DNA of 63,609 nucleotides, filler included. It is 6 parts of 6 records of this genome, joined end to end, with 100 filler letters (N's around TTAATTAATTAA, not from the genome) between each part and the next. Parts side by side here need not be neighbours in the genome. Positions count along the whole stretch, not along the records: positions 53,744 to 63,609 come from SRR31156797_18324; 5 more parts are not named here. The stretch is one strand, 5' to 3'. How positions within the stretch are numbered: the first letter of the stretch is position 1; every line of letters begins with the position of its first letter. The notes below the pieces were generated by a model. The model had not been told where the DNA came from. It was given only the letters and a program-made list of their open reading frames with translations, and searched no databases. Positions 12,550 to 63,609 of the stretch are shown here, one piece after another. The translations under genes and the position numbers were made by a program.

Positions 12550-12649
12550 NNNNNNNNNNNNNNNNNNNNNNNNNNNNNNNNNNNNNNNNNNNNTTAATTA
12601 ATTAANNNNNNNNNNNNNNNNNNNNNNNNNNNNNNNNNNNNNNNNNNNN
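12550..12649. other. Artificial contig spacer
   Basis: N-run + TTAATTAATTAA + N-run; composition changes sharply across it. Confidence 0.98.
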
Positions 12650-22688: not shown

Positions 22689-22788
22689 NNNNNNNNNNNN
22701 NNNNNNNNNNNNNNNNNNNNNNNNNNNNNNNNTTAATTAATTAANNNNNNNNNNNNNNNNNNNNNNNNNNNNNNNNNNNNNNNNNNNN
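22689..22788. other. Artificial contig spacer
   Basis: N-run + TTAATTAATTAA + N-run. Confidence 0.98.
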
Positions 22789-37862: not shown

Positions 37863-37962
37863 NNNNNNNNNNNNNNNNNNNNNNNNNNNNNNNNNNNNNN
37901 NNNNNNTTAATTAATTAANNNNNNNNNNNNNNNNNNNNNNNNNNNNNNNNNNNNNNNNNNNN
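37863..37962. other. Artificial contig spacer
   Basis: N-run + TTAATTAATTAA + N-run. Confidence 0.98.
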
Positions 37963-43729: not shown

Positions 43730-43829
43730 NNNNNNNNNNNNNNNNNNNNNNNNNNNNNNNNNNNNNNNNNNNNTTAATTAATTAANNNNNNNNNNNNNNN
43801 NNNNNNNNNNNNNNNNNNNNNNNNNNNNN
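43730..43829. other. Artificial contig spacer
   Basis: N-run + TTAATTAATTAA + N-run. Confidence 0.98.
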
Positions 43830-53643: not shown

Positions 53644-53743
53644 NNNNNNNNNNNNNNNNNNNNNNNNNNNNNNNNNNNNNNNNNNNNTTAATTAATTAAN
53701 NNNNNNNNNNNNNNNNNNNNNNNNNNNNNNNNNNNNNNNNNNN
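53644..53743. other. Artificial contig spacer
   Basis: N-run + TTAATTAATTAA + N-run. Confidence 0.98.
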
Positions 53744-54066
53744 TGCCACGCAATCTGCCACTACTCATACAATCAACCGTGAATTATATTTTTAAAAGCT
53801 TGTAATGTCTTATATATCTGGCTAATATGGGGTTTGTGTAGTAGGGTGAGGAAATACAATTTACCATACAAATGGATAAACTAAACACCTAATAAATATC
53901 AAAAAAACTGTTGATAACTTTTATATATTTTTATTTGCTGAGAGGCTAATTTATGATGTTTTGCAGGGAAAAAGACTTTTATTGCAATCTAGGAGAGTAA
54001 CAATTCAATAAAAAGTTCGTTTGAATGTAATAGATAATAAATTAACCTCATTCAAAATATCTATTC

Positions 54067-55374
54067 ATGAAAATATTCCTAACAACTTTAATAATTGCAT
54101 TATCATTAACTGTTAATGCGCAAAAACTATTGCCGGAAAGTACAACTATTCCATGCTGTGATAACAAATACCATCTTTCAAATGAACCTATTACGAATAG
54201 AGAGTATATAACCTATTTGAATTGGTTAGAGTCCGTTTATAACAGCTTCCCTTTATTGAATAAACAAGTTTATGAAGCATTACCAGGAATCCTTTCGGAT
54301 GATATTAATAAGGATTTCAAAAATAGTAATGATTTTATCTACCATGTAACAGTCAATTTTCCGAATGCAAAACTATCCTCATTTGAGGATAAAACTGTGA
54401 GAAACCAGCTTATAAAGTCGAACAACAAAGCTGTAAAAACCAAAGACTTCAAATGGCCATACACATATTTCGAAGGAGATGGTAAAAAACAAGTTTACAA
54501 GCTTCATAAGTCTCTATACTTGGAAAATGCAACAAACTATGTAAAGGATTACATGTTTAATCCTAAATACCTTGATTACCCAGTTGTTGGTCTATCTCAA
54601 CTTCAAGCTTTAAAATATTTAAAGTGGTTAAGTGACCGATATAACGAATCTCAGCTTTTTGATAAAAAGCTACTACATTTTGACTCCAACCAATTAGGCG
54701 AAAACTGTTTTGTGACAGAGGCATACTTGGCAGAACAATATGCTGGTATACCTTCTGAAAAACATCCAGAGCATAACCTAAAATGGAATTCTGGCTTATT
54801 TCTTCCTTCTTTTCGTTTGCCTTGTGCCTATGAGCTAAATAAAAGGGATGATAAGATTGAATTTAAGGAGTATAAGAAAGATAAACTTAAGTTCTTAAAA
54901 CCTTGGTTATTTGAATTGAACATGAAAAGAGAAGAATATAAAATCACCTACTCAGAATACAATATAGAAATTGGTTTAAATTTATTCTCCTCTTTTAATA
55001 AGGAGTTTGAACTAGATTATTTTGAAAAAGAGATACTAACTCTTAATAGTCCTAATAATCAAGCTGAAAAAAATTATCTAAATCTTTTAGCCGATTTAGG
55101 CTATCCCGTAATCTCAATAAAGAAATTTCTTGATTCAGAAGGTTATGAGATTGAAAAAAATGCAGATGGCAACATGTGGTACACCATCATTGATGCGGAC
55201 GAAAGTGGTACGCTTACTTATATAGATAATTTTAAAACTCAAGAGTTTTTTGAAGCATCTAAAGATAAAGGTTGGAAATATAGAAATGAATATTTTAAAC
55301 TTCCATTAAAGCATGAAATTAATGATGATTTAAGGCCAGTTAAATTTGTGTTTACAACAATTCTTAATAATTAA
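54067..55374 (+). CDS. Secreted protein with degenerate FGE-sulfatase (GldJ/GldK-like) domain
   Basis: Signal peptide ending NAQ; EPITNREY, YMFNPKYLDYPVVGLSQLQALKYLKWLSDRYNE, FRLP. Confidence 0.65.
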   Translation: MKIFLTTLIIALSLTVNAQKLLPESTTIPCCDNKYHLSNEPITNREYITYLNWLESVYNSFPLLNKQVYEALPGILSDDINKDFKNSNDFIYHVTVNFPNAKLSSFEDKTVRNQLIKSNNKAVKTKDFKWPYTYFEGDGKKQVYKLHKSLYLENATNYVKDYMFNPKYLDYPVVGLSQLQALKYLKWLSDRYNESQLFDKKLLHFDSNQLGENCFVTEAYLAEQYAGIPSEKHPEHNLKWNSGLFLPSFRLPCAYELNKRDDKIEFKEYKKDKLKFLKPWLFELNMKREEYKITYSEYNIEIGLNLFSSFNKEFELDYFEKEILTLNSPNNQAEKNYLNLLADLGYPVISIKKFLDSEGYEIEKNADGNMWYTIIDADESGTLTYIDNFKTQEFFEASKDKGWKYRNEYFKLPLKHEINDDLRPVKFVFTTILNN

Positions 55375-55377
55375 ATA

Positions 55378-56403
55378 ATGATAATTGTTCTTAATCAATT
55401 AAATATGAATATAAGATTAGTTCTTATCCTGATTGTGTTATCTATCAGCTCAATCCCTGCATATAGTGAGACTACCTTTGAGCGTGGCTTTAAAGATGGT
55501 TACAAAGAAGGTTATTGTTACAACGATTATGGTTGTATTGCACCGATTCCTCCAATAGCACCAATTCCCAATGTTAACGAAAGTAAAGATAACTACCAAG
55601 ATGGTTATAATAGAGGCTTTAAGCGTGGCATGGAAGATAAAACAAGAGACTTAAAAAAGAAGCAAAATCAGGCAACTCCTAACACACAACAATTAAATAA
55701 TCATAAATTCAAAGATTTCACAGGAGCAGATATGAGTGGAACTTTACAAGCTCTGCCTGAAGTTGAGATGCCATCACAATCATCTATAAATAGAAAGCTA
55801 TGGGAACAAAATAGAAGCAGCGCAATTGCTATTGAGCAAAGCTATAGGTCTTTTAATTCATACCCTTCAAGCATTTCAAATGGCTGGCATAATGTTATCT
55901 GTGTAAGTAAACAAACAAACCAAAGAATTTCTGCAAAGGTACTTGTGTCATCCAATTTAATTAAAGATATAGAACCAGGAAAAAAGGCGGCTCATATCGA
56001 TATGAGTGTCACATACCCTACAAAAATTAATAACGCAAAAACATCCTTGCAATTAACATGGAACTATGATGGAAGTATTAAGGTTTTTGATGTTTACTTT
56101 TTTGAATATCTAAATAACCCAAATTCTTCTGCCACGCCACCATTAAAGAAAGGAAAAGTTAGTTTTTGGACTAATTGGAAGAAAGCAATAGGAACTAAAA
56201 TTTATATAGAGGATGAATATATTGGTACTTTCTATGGATACTTTACTGATGGAGAACCCAATTGTGGACAAGAAGGTACTGTAACATATGAAAACAAAGC
56301 TGGCAAATACTCTTTTAAAGCTTATTCCAAAAAGAAAGGCAATTGGGCTGGCACTATAGAAATCAAAGAAGAGGACTGCTCTACGATATTACTAGGTGAA
56401 TAA
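55378..56403 (+). CDS. Hypothetical secreted protein
   Basis: Signal peptide; GFKDGYKEGY/GYNRGF repeats around PIPPIAPIP; beta-rich C-terminus with Cys pair. Confidence 0.7.
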   Translation: MIIVLNQLNMNIRLVLILIVLSISSIPAYSETTFERGFKDGYKEGYCYNDYGCIAPIPPIAPIPNVNESKDNYQDGYNRGFKRGMEDKTRDLKKKQNQATPNTQQLNNHKFKDFTGADMSGTLQALPEVEMPSQSSINRKLWEQNRSSAIAIEQSYRSFNSYPSSISNGWHNVICVSKQTNQRISAKVLVSSNLIKDIEPGKKAAHIDMSVTYPTKINNAKTSLQLTWNYDGSIKVFDVYFFEYLNNPNSSATPPLKKGKVSFWTNWKKAIGTKIYIEDEYIGTFYGYFTDGEPNCGQEGTVTYENKAGKYSFKAYSKKKGNWAGTIEIKEEDCSTILLGE

Positions 56404-56513
56404 AGCTATCTGTGCATTAGATTATAATTCGAATAATCTTTAAAAAACTATAGTTGTAAGCTATCTAATAGCATATAACTTATTTCATTAAAATATGCTT
56501 ATCACGAAATAAA

Positions 56514-56915
56514 ATGAAAGGTGAATTTATGGAGAAAAAGGAAGAATTTTCTAAATCAGAACTTGAGAAAATACTGGTAATGTATAGTGAATTGAAAGTC
56601 TTATTTGATTCAGTTGAATATAAAGGTCTTGATTTTAAGGCTAAAAACGATGTAACATTTAAGGGCTATAGTGGCACGACAGAAAAGGAATGTGTTGAGT
56701 ACACTGAGGAAGTAATTAAAAATTTTGGTGATACCATTTATATTCATGAAGATGAACCTAATCAGGAAATGTTACCAATTTACAGAGATATGTATTTGCG
56801 CTTTATTGAGAAAAGAACTTCATCAATCTTTAATAGGTTAGAATCATCAGAACAACAAAGAAAAGAATTCATTGACTTTGTTGTGTATGGCGATACTAAA
56901 TTAAGCTGTAAATAA
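56514..56915 (+). CDS. YfbU-like protein
   Basis: ILVMYSEL..FKGYSGTTE..EMLPIYRDMY resembles the YfbU C-terminal part. Confidence 0.5.
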   Translation: MKGEFMEKKEEFSKSELEKILVMYSELKVLFDSVEYKGLDFKAKNDVTFKGYSGTTEKECVEYTEEVIKNFGDTIYIHEDEPNQEMLPIYRDMYLRFIEKRTSSIFNRLESSEQQRKEFIDFVVYGDTKLSCK

Positions 56916-56976
56916 GTTAAAATACTTTTTAGTTGTAGAGTGATAGAGCTCGGCAAACAAATAAAAATAATATTTA

Positions 56977-57852
56977 ATGATTTTTCCCGATAATAAAGAT
57001 TACCCAATATTCGCCGAAGGTATTGGAGACTTCAAAAATTTTGAAATACGACTTAATAAAGACCCTAAAGACATTGATTACGGTGATAGAATACTAATTT
57101 ACCATTGGAAACACCTAGCTGATTATAGATACTTGATTGTTGTAGGAAATAAAATTCCCCAAGGTGGTGGATATAGGAGGGCAAAATTAACATTTGATAA
57201 TCCTAAAGGGGAAAAGACCGTTGAAACTCAAGTAAAATTTGAAGAGGGTGTTTTACATACCAAGCTCCCTAATATTAGAGAAATTTCATTATTAGCTATT
57301 CAAAATATTTCTATTCGATACTCTTTTAGGAGCTATAATAAATATATTCAAAGAGAACTAGAAAGAAGCCGCAAAATTAAAGATTATGAAAAAGCGGAAA
57401 AAGAAAAAAGAGAAAAATACTGGAACAGTCCAGAAGGAAAGCACATTTTGAAATTGTTTAATGATGAACAGGAACAACTCAAAAAAGATAAGTTGGAAAA
57501 AAAGCGTGAAGCATGGTCTTGGTTTAACAGGTCTTTTTTACTTTATCTTGATGCAATAAAAATTTGGGATGCTAAGAAAGAACCATTTATTGATGAAATT
57601 TTAGAGCTTAAAAAGCAAAGAAGAAATTTAGGCGGTGAGGATAAAAAGAAGCAAAAAGAGTTATTTGAAAAAACTAACAACCTTAGGCGTGCTTTGCGAA
57701 AAGAACAAAATGATTTCATGAGTAAATACCAATGGCCTCGCACTATTTGGGGTAATTTGAAGTATTGCCCTCCTGAGTTAGAACAAGAAATTCGTACTTA
57801 CGTAAATAAGCACAATATCCCAATTAGACCACAAGTGGATATCGATAGTTAA
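56977..57852 (+). CDS. Hypothetical protein with charged helical C-terminus
   Basis: 291-aa ORF, family not recognised. Confidence 0.7.
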   Translation: MIFPDNKDYPIFAEGIGDFKNFEIRLNKDPKDIDYGDRILIYHWKHLADYRYLIVVGNKIPQGGGYRRAKLTFDNPKGEKTVETQVKFEEGVLHTKLPNIREISLLAIQNISIRYSFRSYNKYIQRELERSRKIKDYEKAEKEKREKYWNSPEGKHILKLFNDEQEQLKKDKLEKKREAWSWFNRSFLLYLDAIKIWDAKKEPFIDEILELKKQRRNLGGEDKKKQKELFEKTNNLRRALRKEQNDFMSKYQWPRTIWGNLKYCPPELEQEIRTYVNKHNIPIRPQVDIDS

Positions 57853-57856
57853 TATG

Positions 57857-57901
57857 GCTATTTTTCCAGTAAATGTTTACGTTATTTGTTGGAAAAATAG
57901 C
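57857..57901. terminator. Bidirectional terminator between cargo genes and the lysis cassette
   Basis: GCTATTTTTCCA...TGGAAAAATAGC 12-bp perfect stem, extendable with G-U pairs, between convergent stops. Confidence 0.75.
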
Positions 57902-57912
57902 ACATATTTTAT

Positions 57913-58473
57913 TTAATGAATAAATAAAATTGCATCAATCCTTCTCAACCACCCTTTCAAAAATTTATGATTCTGACCTTTCTGAGCAATGGTGTTGTAA
58001 TAATGGATGCGAGCAGATTTAATAGCATTAAATAATGATTCCGGGTGACATGAATTAATCGCCTTAACCGTATTCCTTCCAATAATACCATCCAATTTAA
58101 GGTCATATTCAAAAAAACGGTTCAATACTTTTTGAACTCCACAGCTACCCCAGTAACCACTATTTACGCACCAATCAAAAATGATTTCTTGCAAAGGACC
58201 AGAAACAATATAGCCTATTTTATATTTATCGTAGAAGTTATGCTTGTAGAAATCCTTAACCAATTCCGTTAATCCTGGAATATCTAGCTTTGTATTCCGC
58301 TTTATTTCTCCAAACGCTTGTTTGTATTCATCAATAAGCTGCCAACCATCCCAATTAGGATGTAAGTTCCGGGCTACACCCATATAGGTTTCACCACCTT
58401 TATCTCCGATTACGTTGGCATAATAGCCTTCATGTTTGATTACACCATCAAACAATTCATCAAAAGTCTTCAT
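57913..58473 (-). CDS. Glycoside hydrolase family 108 endolysin with C-terminal peptidoglycan-binding domain
   Basis: HEGYYAN..DKGGETYMGV, FDWCVNSG, DGIIGRNT, FLKGWLRR. Confidence 0.92.
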   Translation of the reverse strand: MKTFDELFDGVIKHEGYYANVIGDKGGETYMGVARNLHPNWDGWQLIDEYKQAFGEIKRNTKLDIPGLTELVKDFYKHNFYDKYKIGYIVSGPLQEIIFDWCVNSGYWGSCGVQKVLNRFFEYDLKLDGIIGRNTVKAINSCHPESLFNAIKSARIHYYNTIAQKGQNHKFLKGWLRRIDAILFIH

Positions 58474-58882
58474 TCTTACGTTTGGTTTTAAGTTTTACAT
58501 TGTTTACTCCTGATATTGCACCACCGAAGAGAAAGTCAATAATGGTGCTTAGTTTGGTGGATATTCCACCGTTGATACTGCTTATGAAAGCTATTTGCCA
58601 ATCCTGCAATTCAATTGTTTGAAAAACAAAATAGTTGAGCATAATGAAGGTCAGACCACACCATGCAACCAGGAAGAAGATTGCAAATGTTTTTTGCAGC
58701 AAGCTGTCCTGTGCATACATGGTTCTTGCTGAATCTCGGTCGGCAACCGCCATTTTAAAAAGCTCCATTTTTCCCTGGAGCTTTTCTTCCTGAGTAGTAA
58801 AAATCTCATCAATGAGTTTTGTACCAACCTTGAGTGTTTCCGTAACTCCGGCATTGGTTAGTTTTCCAAATATCTTTCTCAT
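58460..58882 (-). CDS. Holin (3TM/GTA-release-holin-like)
   Basis: TTQEEK..ADRDSARTMY, two TMs, IIDFLFGG; overlaps the endolysin start. Confidence 0.7.
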   Translation of the reverse strand: MRKIFGKLTNAGVTETLKVGTKLIDEIFTTQEEKLQGKMELFKMAVADRDSARTMYAQDSLLQKTFAIFFLVAWCGLTFIMLNYFVFQTIELQDWQIAFISSINGGISTKLSTIIDFLFGGAISGVNNVKLKTKRKNEDF

Positions 58883-59211
58883 CGCTCTACAAATTTTAAG
58901 ATGGTATCTAGCTTCTCATTAAGCTGCTTAATTGTTTGGTGAAACAGCTCCTTACTAACATAAATTTCTTTTGAGCTATCTCTTAAATCAGAAACACGCT
59001 TATGCAGTATGGCAAACTTGTTTTCAGCTCCTTCCAATTCTTTAGTAAGGTGTTGAATATCCTTCTCAAGTAAATCGGTCTTAGCATCAACGGTTTCTTT
59101 AGTGGCATTTTTAGAAATAGCATTGCGGATTATGTATGAGAGTACACCTACTGTGAGAGAACTCAATCCGGCTATAACCACCCAATAGAATTTAATTGTC
59201 ATTTCTTCCAT
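58879..59211 (-). CDS. Membrane-anchored coiled-coil protein of the lysis cassette
   Basis: True start likely MEEMTIKF at 59211, right after the ATPase stop; one N-terminal TM then a coiled coil ending KLDTIL. Confidence 0.7.
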   Translation of the reverse strand: MEEMTIKFYWVVIAGLSSLTVGVLSYIIRNAISKNATKETVDAKTDLLEKDIQHLTKELEGAENKFAILHKRVSDLRDSSKEIYVSKELFHQTIKQLNEKLDTILKFVER

Positions 59212-59212
59212 G

Positions 59213-59845
59213 CTAAAAGATTTTAATGGTTTCTGTACTACCCTCCGGAAAGCGGTTTTTCTCCATCGTTGCACTTTGATTTTCAATGTGCATAATAGCA
59301 TCCACAAGATGTTCGTATTTCGTTCCACCTTTAGATGTCCCGTCACGGTTTGCTTGATTGATGATTACAAATGAGGTATAGAGATATTGTTTCTTCAGCT
59401 CAACAAGTTCCTCGTGCGATACTTCAGTAGTTTGTGTACTATCAATAAATACCACATCGTAATCCTTGAATAGTTTCGGATTGTAATCTTCAATTATTCC
59501 AATCGGACTGTTAATCCCAAGTCTTACTACTTTCTCCTGCATTGTTCCTTTTGCACCTTCTTCATTGGCTACATACAGGACTTTATAACCATGCTGTTTT
59601 ACCAATTCATCGGCAAACATCAAGGCTACGGTACTCTTGCCATGAAAGCGTGAGCCGTAAATCATTATATAGAATGGGATATACAGCTTGCCTAATAGTT
59701 TACCGAATCTTCCCCTAATGGAGATGGTCTTAAAATTCATCTTGGCAAGGTCGTTTGCTAAAACAACCTGGTCGGATGCGATGACTGCGGTTCTCGTGGT
59801 GCCGGGATTGAATGCCCTGTTTTGTGAGCCACTACTTTTGGGCAT
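59213..59845 (-). CDS. RecA-superfamily (RadA/Sms-like) P-loop ATPase, probably made as a frameshift fusion
   Basis: Walker A GSRFHGKS, VLYVANEEG, Walker B VVFIDS, NQANRDG..GGTKYEHLVD, EKNRF. Confidence 0.85.
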   Translation of the reverse strand: MPKSSGSQNRAFNPGTTRTAVIASDQVVLANDLAKMNFKTISIRGRFGKLLGKLYIPFYIMIYGSRFHGKSTVALMFADELVKQHGYKVLYVANEEGAKGTMQEKVVRLGINSPIGIIEDYNPKLFKDYDVVFIDSTQTTEVSHEELVELKKQYLYTSFVIINQANRDGTSKGGTKYEHLVDAIMHIENQSATMEKNRFPEGSTETIKIF

Positions 59846-59869
59846 GGAAGTAGTGGCATTTACTTTCCC
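59812..59869 (-). other. -1 programmed ribosomal frameshift signal: G GGA AAG plus H-type pseudoknot
   Basis: Slip site 59869-59863; spacer TAAAT; S1 GCCACTACTT/AAGTAGTGGC; S2 ATGCCC/GGGCAT; -1 frame open into the ATPase. Confidence 0.85.
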
Positions 59870-60726
59870 AATCCGGCAATGCCTTGTAGCCCTTTTAACT
59901 GAACATTGGTAACAAGCAGCTTGTCACTCTCCAGATAATCATGTAAATGCTTTTGGACGTTTTTCACCTGTTCAAATTCTTTGTCGGACTTGTTGACCTT
60001 ACCGTTTTTCAATGAATTGGTAACTGTAGTAAGTAAGCGTTGGGCTTTTGCTTTTGTGATATTGCCATATAAATTGATAAACCTTTTAATCAATGCAACT
60101 GCCGGAGTAACACCATAGTCATCCACAATCTTTTTAAGCTTTGTGTATAGTGAATCCGGAACTTCAAACTTGCAAGTACCATTCATTTCTTTGTAGGTCT
60201 TAATCAAGTCATTACTTATGCTTTTAATTTCAGAGGCGTACTTGCTTGATTTGCGAATGGTCTTTTCGGTAGCAGCCTTTTGAATCACCTTATACAATAG
60301 CGATACCTGACGTTCTGTTACCTTCTTATTGTGGAAGTTCAGATAACGCCTGATTACCTTAATCTCCAACGGCATCAAATCAACCTCAATGGGTTTTCGT
60401 TGTGCTTTTTTTGGTACTGCCATTTTCTTTGTTGCTGTCCGTTTGGGTGAAGCTTTCTTTGTCACATTTTTTGTTGATTTTTGAGACAAGGTAGTCTTCT
60501 TCTTCGCTGATGTTTTCTTTGGTGCAGGGCTTTTCTTTTCTGAATCCTTTAGGTAAGGTTCAACGATTTTGAAATGATTATCCAACATCTCTTTTATATC
60601 CTTATCCTCATTGTAGAAATCGGCAAATGAATCGAACTCTTTATGTGCTTCCTGTGCTGCTTCCGGCAACTTTTTGAAGTCAATATTTTTGGTGGCTTCC
60701 TTGTAGTTTTTGATTGTTAATTTCAT
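59860..60726 (-). CDS. Basic hypothetical protein with histone-H1-like linker and duplicated helical domain
   Basis: SPAPKKTSAKKK..KKASPKRTATKK linker; IRRYLNFHNK / IKRFINLYGN internal repeat; ends GIAGLGK. Confidence 0.85.
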   Translation of the reverse strand: MKLTIKNYKEATKNIDFKKLPEAAQEAHKEFDSFADFYNEDKDIKEMLDNHFKIVEPYLKDSEKKSPAPKKTSAKKKTTLSQKSTKNVTKKASPKRTATKKMAVPKKAQRKPIEVDLMPLEIKVIRRYLNFHNKKVTERQVSLLYKVIQKAATEKTIRKSSKYASEIKSISNDLIKTYKEMNGTCKFEVPDSLYTKLKKIVDDYGVTPAVALIKRFINLYGNITKAKAQRLLTTVTNSLKNGKVNKSDKEFEQVKNVQKHLHDYLESDKLLVTNVQLKGLQGIAGLGK

Positions 60727-60760
60727 ACTATTTGATATTAAGTTTTTAGTACACTATTTA

Positions 60761-63091
60761 TTATTCGCTGCCCTTCGCAAGGGCTTGTTTCTGTTTAATG
60801 CGAATTGCTTTAGCCCTGATTTTGGCAAGTTTCAGTTTGCGTTCTTTGCCCACTATCACACCTTTGTTCACGCTGCCTTTTTCGGTCAGGTCGATGTATT
60901 CATCGGCTCGTTTATCGGTAAATGGTTCAAATGATTTTATGGATAAATACTCCTTGATTGCATAAATCAGGTTATCAAAGCACTTGTTGATGTAAATGCG
61001 TTCCTGACCCTGCGGATAAACAGGATGAGAAAACATACCTCCTGATACCAAGTAGTTATTTACCCGGTCCTTTTCCTTTAGCTTGTCGTACACATAACAT
61101 TCAAAGCTTCGAGCAAACATCTCAGCGATGTTTTTCCAATAGGCACCTTGAAGTTTGGAGTAGTGATACAGGTAGCTATCGGTCGGTCGCTTTTTAGAGC
61201 CATTAGAATTGAAATTATCATAGCTCACACAGATACCGCCTTCTGCACCGTAATAACCAAATCTAAGCATGACGATTAATTGCGCAATGCTCTGATGAAG
61301 GACTGTTTTAGGAACGTCATCTTCTAAAACAACCTTTAATATCGACTTGAACCAATCTTTTGTTGGGGAGGATTTACTGCCAATGAAATACTTCTTGCGA
61401 TACCCTAAACTTTCAATGATGGTATTCAGATAGCTTTCTGAACGCAATGGTTTGGTTGATAATTCTAAACCATTCAAATAATGGTCAAAGAAATGCCCCC
61501 ACTCATGGGCTACCGAACCGTCACCGTTACGTTTGGTCAGGTTGATGAGCTGCCGTGTTGGGTAATAAGTAGCCATTGCTTTACCACCACGACCGAATGC
61601 ACCGAATGCAATAGCCAGGGCTTCGTTTATGGATAGGTTGATGTCAAGTACCTCGCATAAATCAACGATGGCTGCAACAAAGTGGCGAATGTGTTCCCTG
61701 GCTTCATCATCCTTCACATAGTTTCCTAATGTGAGCGATTTAAAATGAAGCTTTTTGATAACCGTATTTTCATCCGCTTCTTCAATTAATAAACCTCCTG
61801 TGCGTTTGATATATGATAGCGGTACGGCTTCTATTTTAGGCTTGCTGCTGCTTTTTGATTTGCTTGCTTTCTTTGTTTCTGCCCAGCTCCAATCAGGTTT
61901 AAATTCCTTGTATGGAAATTGCTCTTTTTTCTGGTTATATTCACGTTTGGCATCATTTATAAATCGGGTACAAACCTGAGTGACATACCTTACATAGTCT
62001 TCTACAGTTCTAACGCTGCTCAACATTCCACCCCTAAACGTGAGGTCGGTTTGCTTGTGACGTTTCATATCTGCTGTTGAAATGATTTGGTGAGCTGAAT
62101 CAATACAATCGTTCTGACGTTTGATTTTCATTTCCATCAAGTGTTTCAACTTTGCAGCATGAGGCTCTGCCTGCTCCTTTGTTACTCCTGAATAGTGATG
62201 GGCTTTCATGTAGGTTTCCTTAACCGCATTGGTTGTGCGGTAGCCCTTAATGGTAAAGACAATGTTGCGCAGAGCCTTCCCAAATATTAATCCAAAATCA
62301 TACTTGCCAACAATTTCACCATTATTGGCGATGGTTTCGAGTTGTTGTAAATTAGTAATTGTAATGGCATCATGCAGAACTCTTACAAAAGCCTCTGCCA
62401 TTCTCACATATTGCTCCCTGGCTTCTTTGGTAGCTTTATGTGGCTTGGGTGGGAATGCCTGACGAATCTTTACTTTCAGGAATGCACACCCAGCATCTGT
62501 ACCATTTTCTTTTTCTGCTTGTGGGTCAATCTTTGGAAATACCTTATCCTTTTTGACCAGCTCGATGGCGGTAGCTTCGTCCTGTTCGATGCTGTTTAAA
62601 TCGCTACTACTAATTAGTTTGTTGTACATGGCTTGTTCCTTTCTGGAACCATGAACACGCTTCCCGGCATCCTTAAATTCCCGGTTCTTTTGCTTCTCCT
62701 GTAAAGCTTTCTCGACTTCCGTGTCAATATCCCCAAGATTTTCATTGGGGGTTGCTAAGTTGGCGCAATAGTTTTCGTATAAAGACCATTCATCGCTGAT
62801 AATAAAGAATCCATCATTGGGATTAGGTTTGTAACCTTGCTTTGTTTTGTAGCCATTCCGACCTTCAACGAATCCTTGTTTGGGTAGAATCCAAACGAAG
62901 TCACCTTTTCTCGATTTATATCGGGTTGCAATAATATCGGTTGCTTTCTCAAAACCTTTATAGATGGGCAAAGCATTGACATTAACGCCCTCTTTAAAAC
63001 CATTGGCTAATATGGAAACCTTTGATTTTCCTTTGGTGCGAATATCCTTGTGAATGGCTTTATACTTTTTATAAAACTCCTTTTCCGTCAT
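60761..63091 (-). CDS. Polyvalent protein with zincin-like metallopeptidase and LPD1-like domains
   Basis: DAGKRVHGSRKE, LAIAFGAFGRGG, GSVAHEWGHFFD (HExxH), EMFARSFECYVYDKL..NNYL..YPQGQER. Confidence 0.8.
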   Translation of the reverse strand: MTEKEFYKKYKAIHKDIRTKGKSKVSILANGFKEGVNVNALPIYKGFEKATDIIATRYKSRKGDFVWILPKQGFVEGRNGYKTKQGYKPNPNDGFFIISDEWSLYENYCANLATPNENLGDIDTEVEKALQEKQKNREFKDAGKRVHGSRKEQAMYNKLISSSDLNSIEQDEATAIELVKKDKVFPKIDPQAEKENGTDAGCAFLKVKIRQAFPPKPHKATKEAREQYVRMAEAFVRVLHDAITITNLQQLETIANNGEIVGKYDFGLIFGKALRNIVFTIKGYRTTNAVKETYMKAHHYSGVTKEQAEPHAAKLKHLMEMKIKRQNDCIDSAHQIISTADMKRHKQTDLTFRGGMLSSVRTVEDYVRYVTQVCTRFINDAKREYNQKKEQFPYKEFKPDWSWAETKKASKSKSSSKPKIEAVPLSYIKRTGGLLIEEADENTVIKKLHFKSLTLGNYVKDDEAREHIRHFVAAIVDLCEVLDINLSINEALAIAFGAFGRGGKAMATYYPTRQLINLTKRNGDGSVAHEWGHFFDHYLNGLELSTKPLRSESYLNTIIESLGYRKKYFIGSKSSPTKDWFKSILKVVLEDDVPKTVLHQSIAQLIVMLRFGYYGAEGGICVSYDNFNSNGSKKRPTDSYLYHYSKLQGAYWKNIAEMFARSFECYVYDKLKEKDRVNNYLVSGGMFSHPVYPQGQERIYINKCFDNLIYAIKEYLSIKSFEPFTDKRADEYIDLTEKGSVNKGVIVGKERKLKLAKIRAKAIRIKQKQALAKGSE

Positions 63092-63609
63092 AGTATGGTC
63101 TTGATTTTAGGATGAGTACCAAGCCCGGCAACTGCCCGAAGCTGTTTCTGCTTAATCAGGATTGCCTTTGCACGGAGCTTCACAAGCTTCAATTGTTTAC
63201 CTGTGTCAATGCTTACCTTTTTACCTTTAGGTGCGGATTGCTTTTGTTTGGCCAGTCGTTTGGGAAATTCCTTTTTGTCTTGCTCAAACATCTTCATCGC
63301 CTCATTGGTAAGGCTATCGGTGGAGTTGCTTCGCTTTGTTCCCTTATCCAAAAACTCATCGTAGTAATGGCGTGGGATTTTAACCGAAAGGCTAAACCGC
63401 TCACCAAGCAGATTAAGAAGTTTGGGCATCTTTCTTTCTTCAACCGAAGCCCTCATATTTCCCGAAACCATTTCAAATCCATCCCGATTATTAACCAGAA
63501 GCTTCACTACATTTTTATCGGTATAAATGGGAATGTGAGTTTTGGTTTTAGGCATGATGACCTTAAAAGTGCCATCATAATGCCTGGCTATTGTAATCCT
63601 GTTTTCGGT
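63088..63609 (-). CDS. C-terminal part of a larger protein, 5'-truncated by the window edge
   Basis: Frame open upstream of the ORF-track Met (TENRITIARHYDGTFKVIMPK...) to position 63609; ends with the shared basic tag. Confidence 0.8.
   Translation of the reverse strand, partial: TENRITIARHYDGTFKVIMPKTKTHIPIYTDKNVVKLLVNNRDGFEMVSGNMRASVEERKMPKLLNLLGERFSLSVKIPRHYYDEFLDKGTKRSNSTDSLTNEAMKMFEQDKKEFPKRLAKQKQSAPKGKKVSIDTGKQLKLVKLRAKAILIKQKQLRAVAGLGTHPKIKTIL

Follow-up and report, generated by a model that had tools for sequence, protein, structure and literature searches.

Each polypeptide of a gene array found in about 45 prophage loci of the Marinilabiliaceae carries the same short peptide, a tag with the 13-residue core K-L-R-A-K-A-I-x-I-K-Q-K-Q, and part of one such array lies at the end of the stretch of DNA analysed here (the window, 63,609 nucleotides). 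Judged from its domains, the array is a split form of a DarB-like polyvalent anti-restriction protein, in which N6-methylase, C5-methylase, helicase and LPD1-zincin are present as separate pieces. What might one peptide do for so varied a set of proteins? The reading that we favour, at a probability of roughly 0.4, is that the tag is a portable, element-specific docking helix which is read by one shared partner encoded by the element, most likely for loading of the array proteins into the virion.

The signals that choose which proteins travel in phage particles are known for very few cases. The tag is a sequence-defined signature of 13 residues that is common to all the pieces of an anti-restriction toolkit, and its natural charge-swapped variants represent ready-made controls of specificity. 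Were it to act as a handle for loading or assembly, it would explain how a giant polyvalent protein can break into genes with coordinated delivery kept, it would give a simple rule by which to spot injected cargo in uncultured Bacteroidota phages, and it would provide a portable tag for placing chosen proteins into the phage particles of laboratory strains.

The two copies in the window

The window consists of six parts of six records joined by filler, such that adjoining parts need not be genomic neighbours. The part that concerns us, from record SRR31156797_18324 (positions 53,744-63,609), forms the final 10 kb and covers a prophage edge in minus-strand reading, the proteins of which have homologues named from Carboxylicivirga, Saccharicrinis and other Marinilabiliaceae (marine Bacteroidota). 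The first copy of the tag, KLKLAKIRAKAIRIKQKQ (60785..60838, minus strand), is found 7 residues ahead of the stop of P0001, a 776-residue LPD1/HExxH protein (60761..63091, minus strand; Pfam LPD1, E = 5e-19) that represents a polyvalent-protein module and ends ...KLKLAKIRAKAIRIKQKQ-ALAKGSE*. The second, QLKLVKLRAKAILIKQKQ (63142..63195, minus strand), lies 17 residues ahead of the stop of P0002 (63088..63609, minus strand), an open reading frame (ORF) that is open at its 5' end and encodes the C-terminal 173 residues of a Strawberry-notch-like superfamily 2 (SF2) helicase. P0002 ends ...QLKLVKLRAKAILIKQKQ-LRAVAGLGTHPKIKTIL*, where the extension after the tag, LRAVAGLGTHPKIKTIL (63091..63141, minus strand), contains a glycine junction.

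The original prediction for this DNA described a basic, C-terminal tag of 18 residues, common to two adjacent and unrelated proteins, as a candidate packaging or export signal. Both translations agree with the two peptides that it reported, and its count of 14 identical residues out of 18, with different codons at nine of the 14, is reproduced from the DNA; when both proteins were shuffled 300 times the best 18-mer identity had a mean of 7.2 and a maximum of 10, with 0/300 shuffles reaching 14. Its statement that the carriers have no further similarity also stands, the top blastp match between P0001 and P0002 outside the motif having E = 0.14. A six-frame scan of the window found the motif at no place besides these two. 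Two details need to be modified. What was called the upstream protein does carry the tag, but is merely the last 173 residues of a helicase of 1,315 residues (the length of its orthologue in a related provirus, L001) that runs off the window, and although the match over 18 residues is real, the conserved part is the 13-residue core.

A split polyvalent protein

The region past the end of the window can be seen in this reference relative, the provirus L001/G005 (44,997 bp, 86% identical, rated 98% complete), its status as a provirus being that given by the IMG/VR and CheckV labels. Here, the four array genes come after a fibre-like gene and one for a transglycosylase, and encode in order a 603-residue N6-adenine methylase with a second methylase domain, a 226-residue C5-methylase, the 1,315-residue helicase and the LPD1 protein. 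All four of the proteins are tagged, and in the 603-residue protein the tag sits between both domains. Pairwise comparison of the five array domains of L001 gives no match better than E = 0.11. The helicase orthologue (L001:6057-10004) matches Pfam AAA_34, Helicase_C_4 and ResIII together with phrog_14770, and the NPPF methylase likewise matches phrog_14770. Fundamental to the interpretation of the array as a split DarB-like protein is that N6-methylase and helicase align to separate stretches of one PHROG profile of 3,427 residues. The PHROG matches of P0001 lie within profiles of 1,500-2,900 residues.

The pieces are separate in all 25 of the long loci, where there are four to five ORFs with stops between them, and the sole fusion is that of the N6-methylase with the second methylase (13/24 loci). 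On one side the array is flanked by a virion transglycosylase and the fibre-like gene and on the other by a holin and an endolysin, a late-gene setting that is typical for virion-delivered anti-restriction proteins; no type IV secretion system family was recognised by Pfam scans in 52 proteins of the window and 32 of the provirus. The HExxH of P0001 is HEWGH at residues 529-533, with H529, E530 and H533 invariant in 42 sequences. P0001 has no match to Pfam MPTase-PolyVal (PF18818), and Foldseek returned 0 matches at E <= 1e-3, its weak rows being mostly collagenase, thermolysin and other zinc metallopeptidases. Some arrays have the N6-methylase and helicase alone, with no LPD1-zincin before the gene of the 288-residue type that follows the array (L099:9977-15876; L131/L132 in G009), and these keep matched tags.

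Distribution of the tag

The occurrence of the tag was followed both by pattern and by profile, the searches with the 30-column profile A2 giving the unbiased counts. A pattern scan of 93 loci yielded 102 instances from the family and two chance matches in unrelated GC-rich loci. Within the 25 long loci, where counts per protein are given after inspection of near-miss cases, the tag is present on the N6-methylase (23/24), the C5-methylase (11/11), the helicase (25/25), the LPD1-zincin (25/25) and the separate second methylase (1/1), and on none of the 45 remaining ORFs of at least 150 residues. All profile matches at E < 0.01 in four host genomes (4.9-6.8 Mb) and the 45-kb provirus are located within prophage arrays, including four of four in the provirus, and among 1.84 billion representative proteins seven match at E <= 1e-3, every one a fragment of these array proteins. 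The original prediction had looked to relatives for such a pattern, expecting a cargo tag to recur on diverse proteins of one element family. The motif does so, with four to five unrelated domains as its carriers, and is restricted to this family.

By pattern, 92 of 120 homologues of the N6-methylase carry one tag; on reading, the other 28 mostly have variant or charge-flipped tags, or are truncated. Among fused giant homologues of the helicase the motif is present in 0/120, so that a linker used generally between the domains of polyvalent proteins is ruled out. Only the five closest of them, which have the helicase as their final domain, terminate in related alternating tails that are acidic, basic, or acidic and then basic. 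The fused protein P0089 has the same acidic tail twice, internally ahead of its metallopeptidase (MPTase)-helicase module and at its end. More distant LPD1 homologues likewise end in alternating tails. From these comparisons the exact motif appears to be lineage-specific and the device to be broader. No relatives of P0062 and P0063 were found among viral contigs, and in the loci of P0074 the tails are not clearly common.

Position and charge

The original prediction is not upheld on two points, namely that the tag is strictly C-terminal and that it is necessarily basic. In the 92 tagged N6-methylase homologues the tag is followed by a stop within 12 residues in 55 cases and after 13-30 residues in one, by a domain of 31-120 residues in 16 and by one of more than 120 residues in 20. 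The module directly after it may be a stop or a domain of 65, 107 or 228 residues. Where the tag is internal, as in the N6-methylase fusions, a glycine is found within 7 residues past it in 32 of 35 such homologues (LSLGK, SLGG, AGLG). It may also be N-terminal, as is seen with the separate second methylase of L057 and with the N6-methylase orthologue in the L062/L063/L064 and G009 elements.

In the latter elements every array protein has an acidic tag (...ALELEMEMEFEF). A further set of acidic tags belongs to a clade of N6-methylases, P0320-P0325, that is nested in the lysine-type radiation (support 100/96) and ends ...LELEAEAIIILQMQ, representing the same scaffold with K/R changed to E or to an apolar residue. 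The apolar positions are kept while the charged positions flip between types, and that the same scaffold also has acidic versions counts against a generic signal, basic in nature, for export or DNA binding. Within an element the tags match in type, both among lysine-type elements (4/4 in L001; 2/2 in each of the window, L099 and G027) and among those of glutamate type (3/3 in each of L062, L063 and L064; 2/2 in G009; 2/2 within P0089). The net charge per 18 residues is +4 to +8 in the element of the window and -3 to -5 in L062. A particular arrangement is seen at L062:11930-12060, and likewise in L064, where the LPD1 protein closes with ...AKALELEMEMAFEF* and the N6-methylase, encoded by the gene that follows, opens with MKTAKVTLTILSIALALELETEMEFSF..., placing two acidic tags back to back across the gene boundary. 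Searches for independent glutamate-type loci of the P0320-P0325 clade gave a best identity of 73% in 133 genomes of the family, 0 matches at 1e-165 in 401 genomes of the order, two loci in a viral scan, both of lysine type, and seven loci in a metagenome scan, all at 71% identity or less.

Conservation and selection

The LPD1 tag is represented by 43 copies, which have 30 distinct DNA sequences and only eight distinct peptides, and the helicase tag by 28 copies with 26 distinct DNA sequences and six distinct peptides. Between orthologues, the ratio of the proportions of non-synonymous (pN) and synonymous (pS) differences in the core is lowest in the helicase (0.018), with values of 0.047 in the N6-methylase and 0.057 in LPD1, and is higher in the C5-methylase (0.27; n = 4). 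When the different tags of a locus are compared with each other (82 pairs), pS is 0.96, which is saturated, and pN is 0.10. Saturated synonymous change combined with a low pN excludes both homogenisation at the level of the DNA and neutral drift, in agreement with the earlier claim of selection on the peptide as opposed to a recent DNA duplication. On these substitution patterns the conservation of the tag is old and peptide-level, under strong purifying selection and not the product of gene conversion. Along the LPD1 gene, the tag window has a pN/pS of 0.070 vs 0.197 gene-wide and ranks 89/650 for constraint, the lowest window of the gene being the HExxH site.

Predicted structure

In the AlphaFold2 model of P0001 the tag falls in a helix of residues 751-775 that is packed on no domain (predicted local distance difference test, pLDDT, of 52-63 for the block), and in that of the methylase fusion it forms a helix of residues 354-377 between the domains, with flanks of pLDDT below 50. 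These models suggest, at low confidence, a free-standing helix that is undocked from its enzyme domain. In helical-wheel projection the conserved residues line up as two opposite stripes, L2-A6-I9-Q13 and A4-I7-Q11, with the charged residues between them, an invariance that is partly by construction as the lysine-type core regular expressions fix some of the positions. Because the two stripes are opposite each other on the helix, the hydrophobic moment is low at 100 degrees (0.10-0.17) and peaks at 150 degrees (0.52-0.86). Both the low moment at 100 degrees and the existence of acidic variants rule out a classical amphipathic helix that would act as an anchor to membrane or DNA. The alternating pattern could also be read as a beta-strand; the residues that make it up (A, L, K, R, E, Q) and the two AlphaFold2 models favour a helix.

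Relation to known systems

The archetype of the polyvalent proteins found in phages and conjugative elements, as set out in passages of Iyer, Burroughs, Anand, de Souza and Aravind (2017, PMC5512222), is P1 DarB with its methylase-helicase dyad. The same inventory is present here (adenine methylase, SF2/Strawberry-notch-like helicase, HExxH and LPD1), and the array is likewise found among late or virion genes; the difference is that many domains per polypeptide are replaced by four to five polypeptides with a common peptide. Passages of that paper (PMC5512222) make no mention of linkers or of alternating, low-complexity or C-terminal tails, and its supplementary alignments may show such tails. 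Capsid targeting sequences (CTS), such as those of P1 DarB and of T4 IPIII, are short peptides that address an anti-restriction or internal protein to the phage head (PMC9024508, in part), and it is this behaviour that is proposed for the tag. According to passages of the same source, a targeting sequence of 30 residues at the N-terminus is enough for DarB and for a reporter to be loaded into P1 heads, and the P1 authors report that the N-termini of the Dar proteins share no consensus (PMC9024508). By contrast, in the array one sequence is common to all the cargo and is usually C-terminal, or internal in the methylase fusion. No description of a shared tag on polyvalent or anti-restriction proteins was found in the open-access literature, subscription journals being outside the scope of the search.

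Several other classes of short peptide bear some resemblance to the tag. The cargo-loading peptides of encapsulins and the encapsulation peptides of bacterial microcompartments are short, occur on unrelated cargo enzymes at either terminus and are joined by a flexible linker. The tag is likewise borne by unrelated proteins and set in linkers (as judged from the low pLDDT on both sides of the internal tag), but the microcompartment type is alpha-amphipathic and the tag, with its low 100-degree moment, is not; the Pfam scans recognised no encapsulin or microcompartment shell family among the window and provirus proteins. In double-glycine leader peptides, which are cut by C39 peptidases, a Gly-Gly or Gly-x junction comes after a helix. 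Here the order is reversed, since the tag remains with the upstream module, and many tags end at a stop without any glycine; the same scans revealed no C39 peptidase. Ionic self-assembling peptides of the EAK16 type have an alternating apolar/charged pattern. The acidic-then-basic tails of the fused relatives P0086 and P0087 resemble such self-complementary designs, whereas the composition of the tag and its AlphaFold2 models favour a helix, and the tags of one element share one sign.

Possible function

A matched peptide on every module, its freedom of position, the retention of the apolar stripes, the concerted change in charge and the absence from the fused giants together point to a handle that has one partner. 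The absence from the fused giants fits with the tag becoming necessary when the pieces are no longer joined, and the late-gene context, combined with the DarB precedent, makes virion loading the most likely purpose. In such a mechanism the helix would stand clear of its enzyme domain on flexible linkers, presenting two conserved apolar stripes with charged stripes alongside, and would be clamped by one common partner from the same element. The pieces of the array would then be handled jointly, most likely by entering the virion and being delivered together with the DNA, and the charged stripes would set the specificity, lysine type here and glutamate type in sister elements. A uniform sign within an element is what is expected of a shared, complementary receptor, where direct pairing of tag with tag predicts mixed signs. 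An extended form of the proposal, unlikely as it stands, is a private, charge-coded address by which every phage lineage would take in its own anti-defence enzymes and no others, with lysine tags read by an acidic receptor patch and glutamate tags by a basic one, and where modules would join by gaining the 13-residue helix at either end.

A possible partner was sought by comparing the homologous proteins of G005 (lysine type) and L062 (glutamate type) over 3,546 windows of 15 residues. Seven windows, in two regions, are acidic in G005 and basic in L062, and none has the reverse pattern. The first region lies in a 116-residue protein of the structural region, with an orthologue at L094:14826-15173, that has IDELEMIS/EEMELVS in lysine-type and ARLRIRS/ARLTIRS in glutamate-type elements, and this protein is a candidate receptor, a lead that rests on one independent contrast. 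Look-ups of the 116-residue protein and of an 836-residue protein in an atlas gave nothing usable. The second region, a patch in the N-region of the helicase, is not persuasive: across 46 proteins it covaries with tail charge at r = -0.28, and P0088, of lysine type, is an exception.

A number of observations weigh against a docking helix for virion loading. PHROGs and Pfam recognised no terminase, portal or major capsid gene on the 45-kb provirus (including L094:5930-16964 and L001:1-950), and no homologue of the 116-residue protein is detectable near the lysine-type array of G027. The two tags on the single polypeptide P0089 are not required by a logic of one address per polypeptide, the tails of P0086 and P0087, acidic and then basic, suit self-pairing, and the N6-methylase of L062 also has a weakly lysine-type C-terminal end. 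The capsid-targeting sequences known from T4 and P1 are, moreover, N-terminal and without a common consensus (PMC9024508, in part).

Some of these points would be accommodated if the tags served for assembly, binding each other or a small hub to give a non-covalent polyvalent complex, with virion loading secondary or absent. Two opposite apolar stripes with small alanine positions suit lateral packing of helices, there is one tag per module even in P0089, where a fused protein has two identical tags, the halves of the P0086 and P0087 tails would be self-complementary if paired antiparallel, and the motif is missing from the 120 fused giants. Yet the tags of an element all have the same charge (+4 to +8 here, -3 to -5 in L062), so that bundles of them would repel, the mixture of lysine and glutamate tags that direct pairing favours is found in none of the split arrays, and a pattern search of the provirus for an oppositely charged, tag-like partner segment found none; we consider assembly as the main role rather unlikely. 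That the helix and glycine junction form a site for a maturation protease, either the array zincin or a prohead protease, and mark the ends of modules is distinctly unlikely. In fusions the tags do fall exactly on module boundaries, mostly with the nearby glycine noted above (32/35), the internal tag of P0089 is followed by ANGGALG in a protein that has an MPTase-PolyVal domain, the array here has an HExxH protein, and a role for the metallopeptidases in processing has been proposed in general terms (passages of Iyer et al., PMC5512222). However, for the 55 of 92 N6-methylase-homologue tags that are within 12 residues of a stop cleavage would release nothing, and their constraint is equal to that of internal tags. 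Tags on N6-methylase and helicase also persist where there is no LPD1-zincin gene, after the array in L099 and in the 38 kb around the G009 array (from the ORF listing), the N-terminal tags of L057 and L062 are unlike an end-of-module site, and P0001 lacks a Pfam MPTase-PolyVal match as well as a significant Foldseek match to a peptidase.

Two further readings ask less of the peptide. A basic helix with a net charge of +4 to +8 in 18 residues might simply tether enzymes to a polyanion, either DNA or an anionic membrane, and every tagged enzyme does act on DNA, but acidic versions on the same scaffold, both in sister elements and in a clade nested within the lysine-type radiation, and a 100-degree moment unlike that of a membrane-type amphipathic helix make this highly improbable. 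It is scarcely credible that the tag has no function of its own, being left over from an inherited linker or used as a recombination joint for the shuffling of modules: very different modules do directly follow the tag, and thus shuffling at the joint occurs, but a pS of 0.96 against a pN of 0.10 between copies, and the rank of the motif window for constraint in the LPD1 gene (89/650), are not what such a remnant would give. A docking helix with one shared partner remains the reading that we prefer.

Gene layout and further observations

Directly after the array in the window is an untagged, lysine-rich protein of 288 residues (59860..60726, minus strand) that has no family match. It adjoins the array in 25/25 long loci and has the tag in none, and in L001 (L001:12354-13220) it ends ...LKGLQGIAGLGK (GIAGLGK), an echo of the AGLG that comes after the helicase tag (...LRAVAGLGTHPKIKTIL). 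Then comes a RecA/AAA_24-like ATPase of 210 residues (59213..59845, minus strand; phrog_6891, E = 9e-20), which is kept after the array in relatives and is fused to a part like the 288-residue protein in L062. Two small proteins, one of them holin-like, are found between the ATPase and the endolysin side of the prophage edge. The lysis cassette (57913..58882, minus strand) is made up of the holin-like protein (58460-58882; PHROG holin) and a GH108 endolysin (57913-58473; Pfam Glyco_hydro_108 and PG_binding_3, PHROG endolysin), and it places the array in the late region.

Between the lysis cassette and a chromosomal sulfatase are four genes on the plus strand (54067-57852), encoding proteins of 435, 341, 133 and 291 residues. 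These have no PHROG or PADLOC match, and their sole Pfam match is to YfbU, below threshold; PADLOC run on seven window proteins gave no match. This right arm differs from the one in provirus G005, which is 13 kb long; in the window, this side of the prophage shows no integrase. Bases 1 to about 53,500 of the window contain ordinary chromosomal genes (sigma-54, Lpt, PTS, ABC transporters and the sulfatase). The window has five pairs of 44-base N runs with 12 bases between the runs of a pair (440 N in total), all of them intergenic (12550-12649, 22689-22788, 37863-37962, 43730-43829 and 53644-53743), and the last pair, like the others filler between parts, coincides with the apparent edge between prophage and chromosome.

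In L001 the gene directly upstream of the array region (L001:1043-3544) encodes an 833-residue fibre-like protein in which a unit of about 47 residues (...GADWEQNVQNKPVTISPEQAEAIE...SYPQ.DEDKLSGIE...) is repeated in tandem about ten times. The provirus also carries, as cargo, a DUF6946 gene together with an Abi_alpha (abortive-infection) gene (L001:20289-21699), which are likely to be prophage-encoded defence. The prophage is multi-copy, with two to four or more copies of the array per genome (G001-G004, G023, G033, G034, G087 and G090), and many assemblies break at the array genes, leaving contigs of about 3 kb that contain the LPD1 gene alone (L018, L023, L028, L035 and L038).

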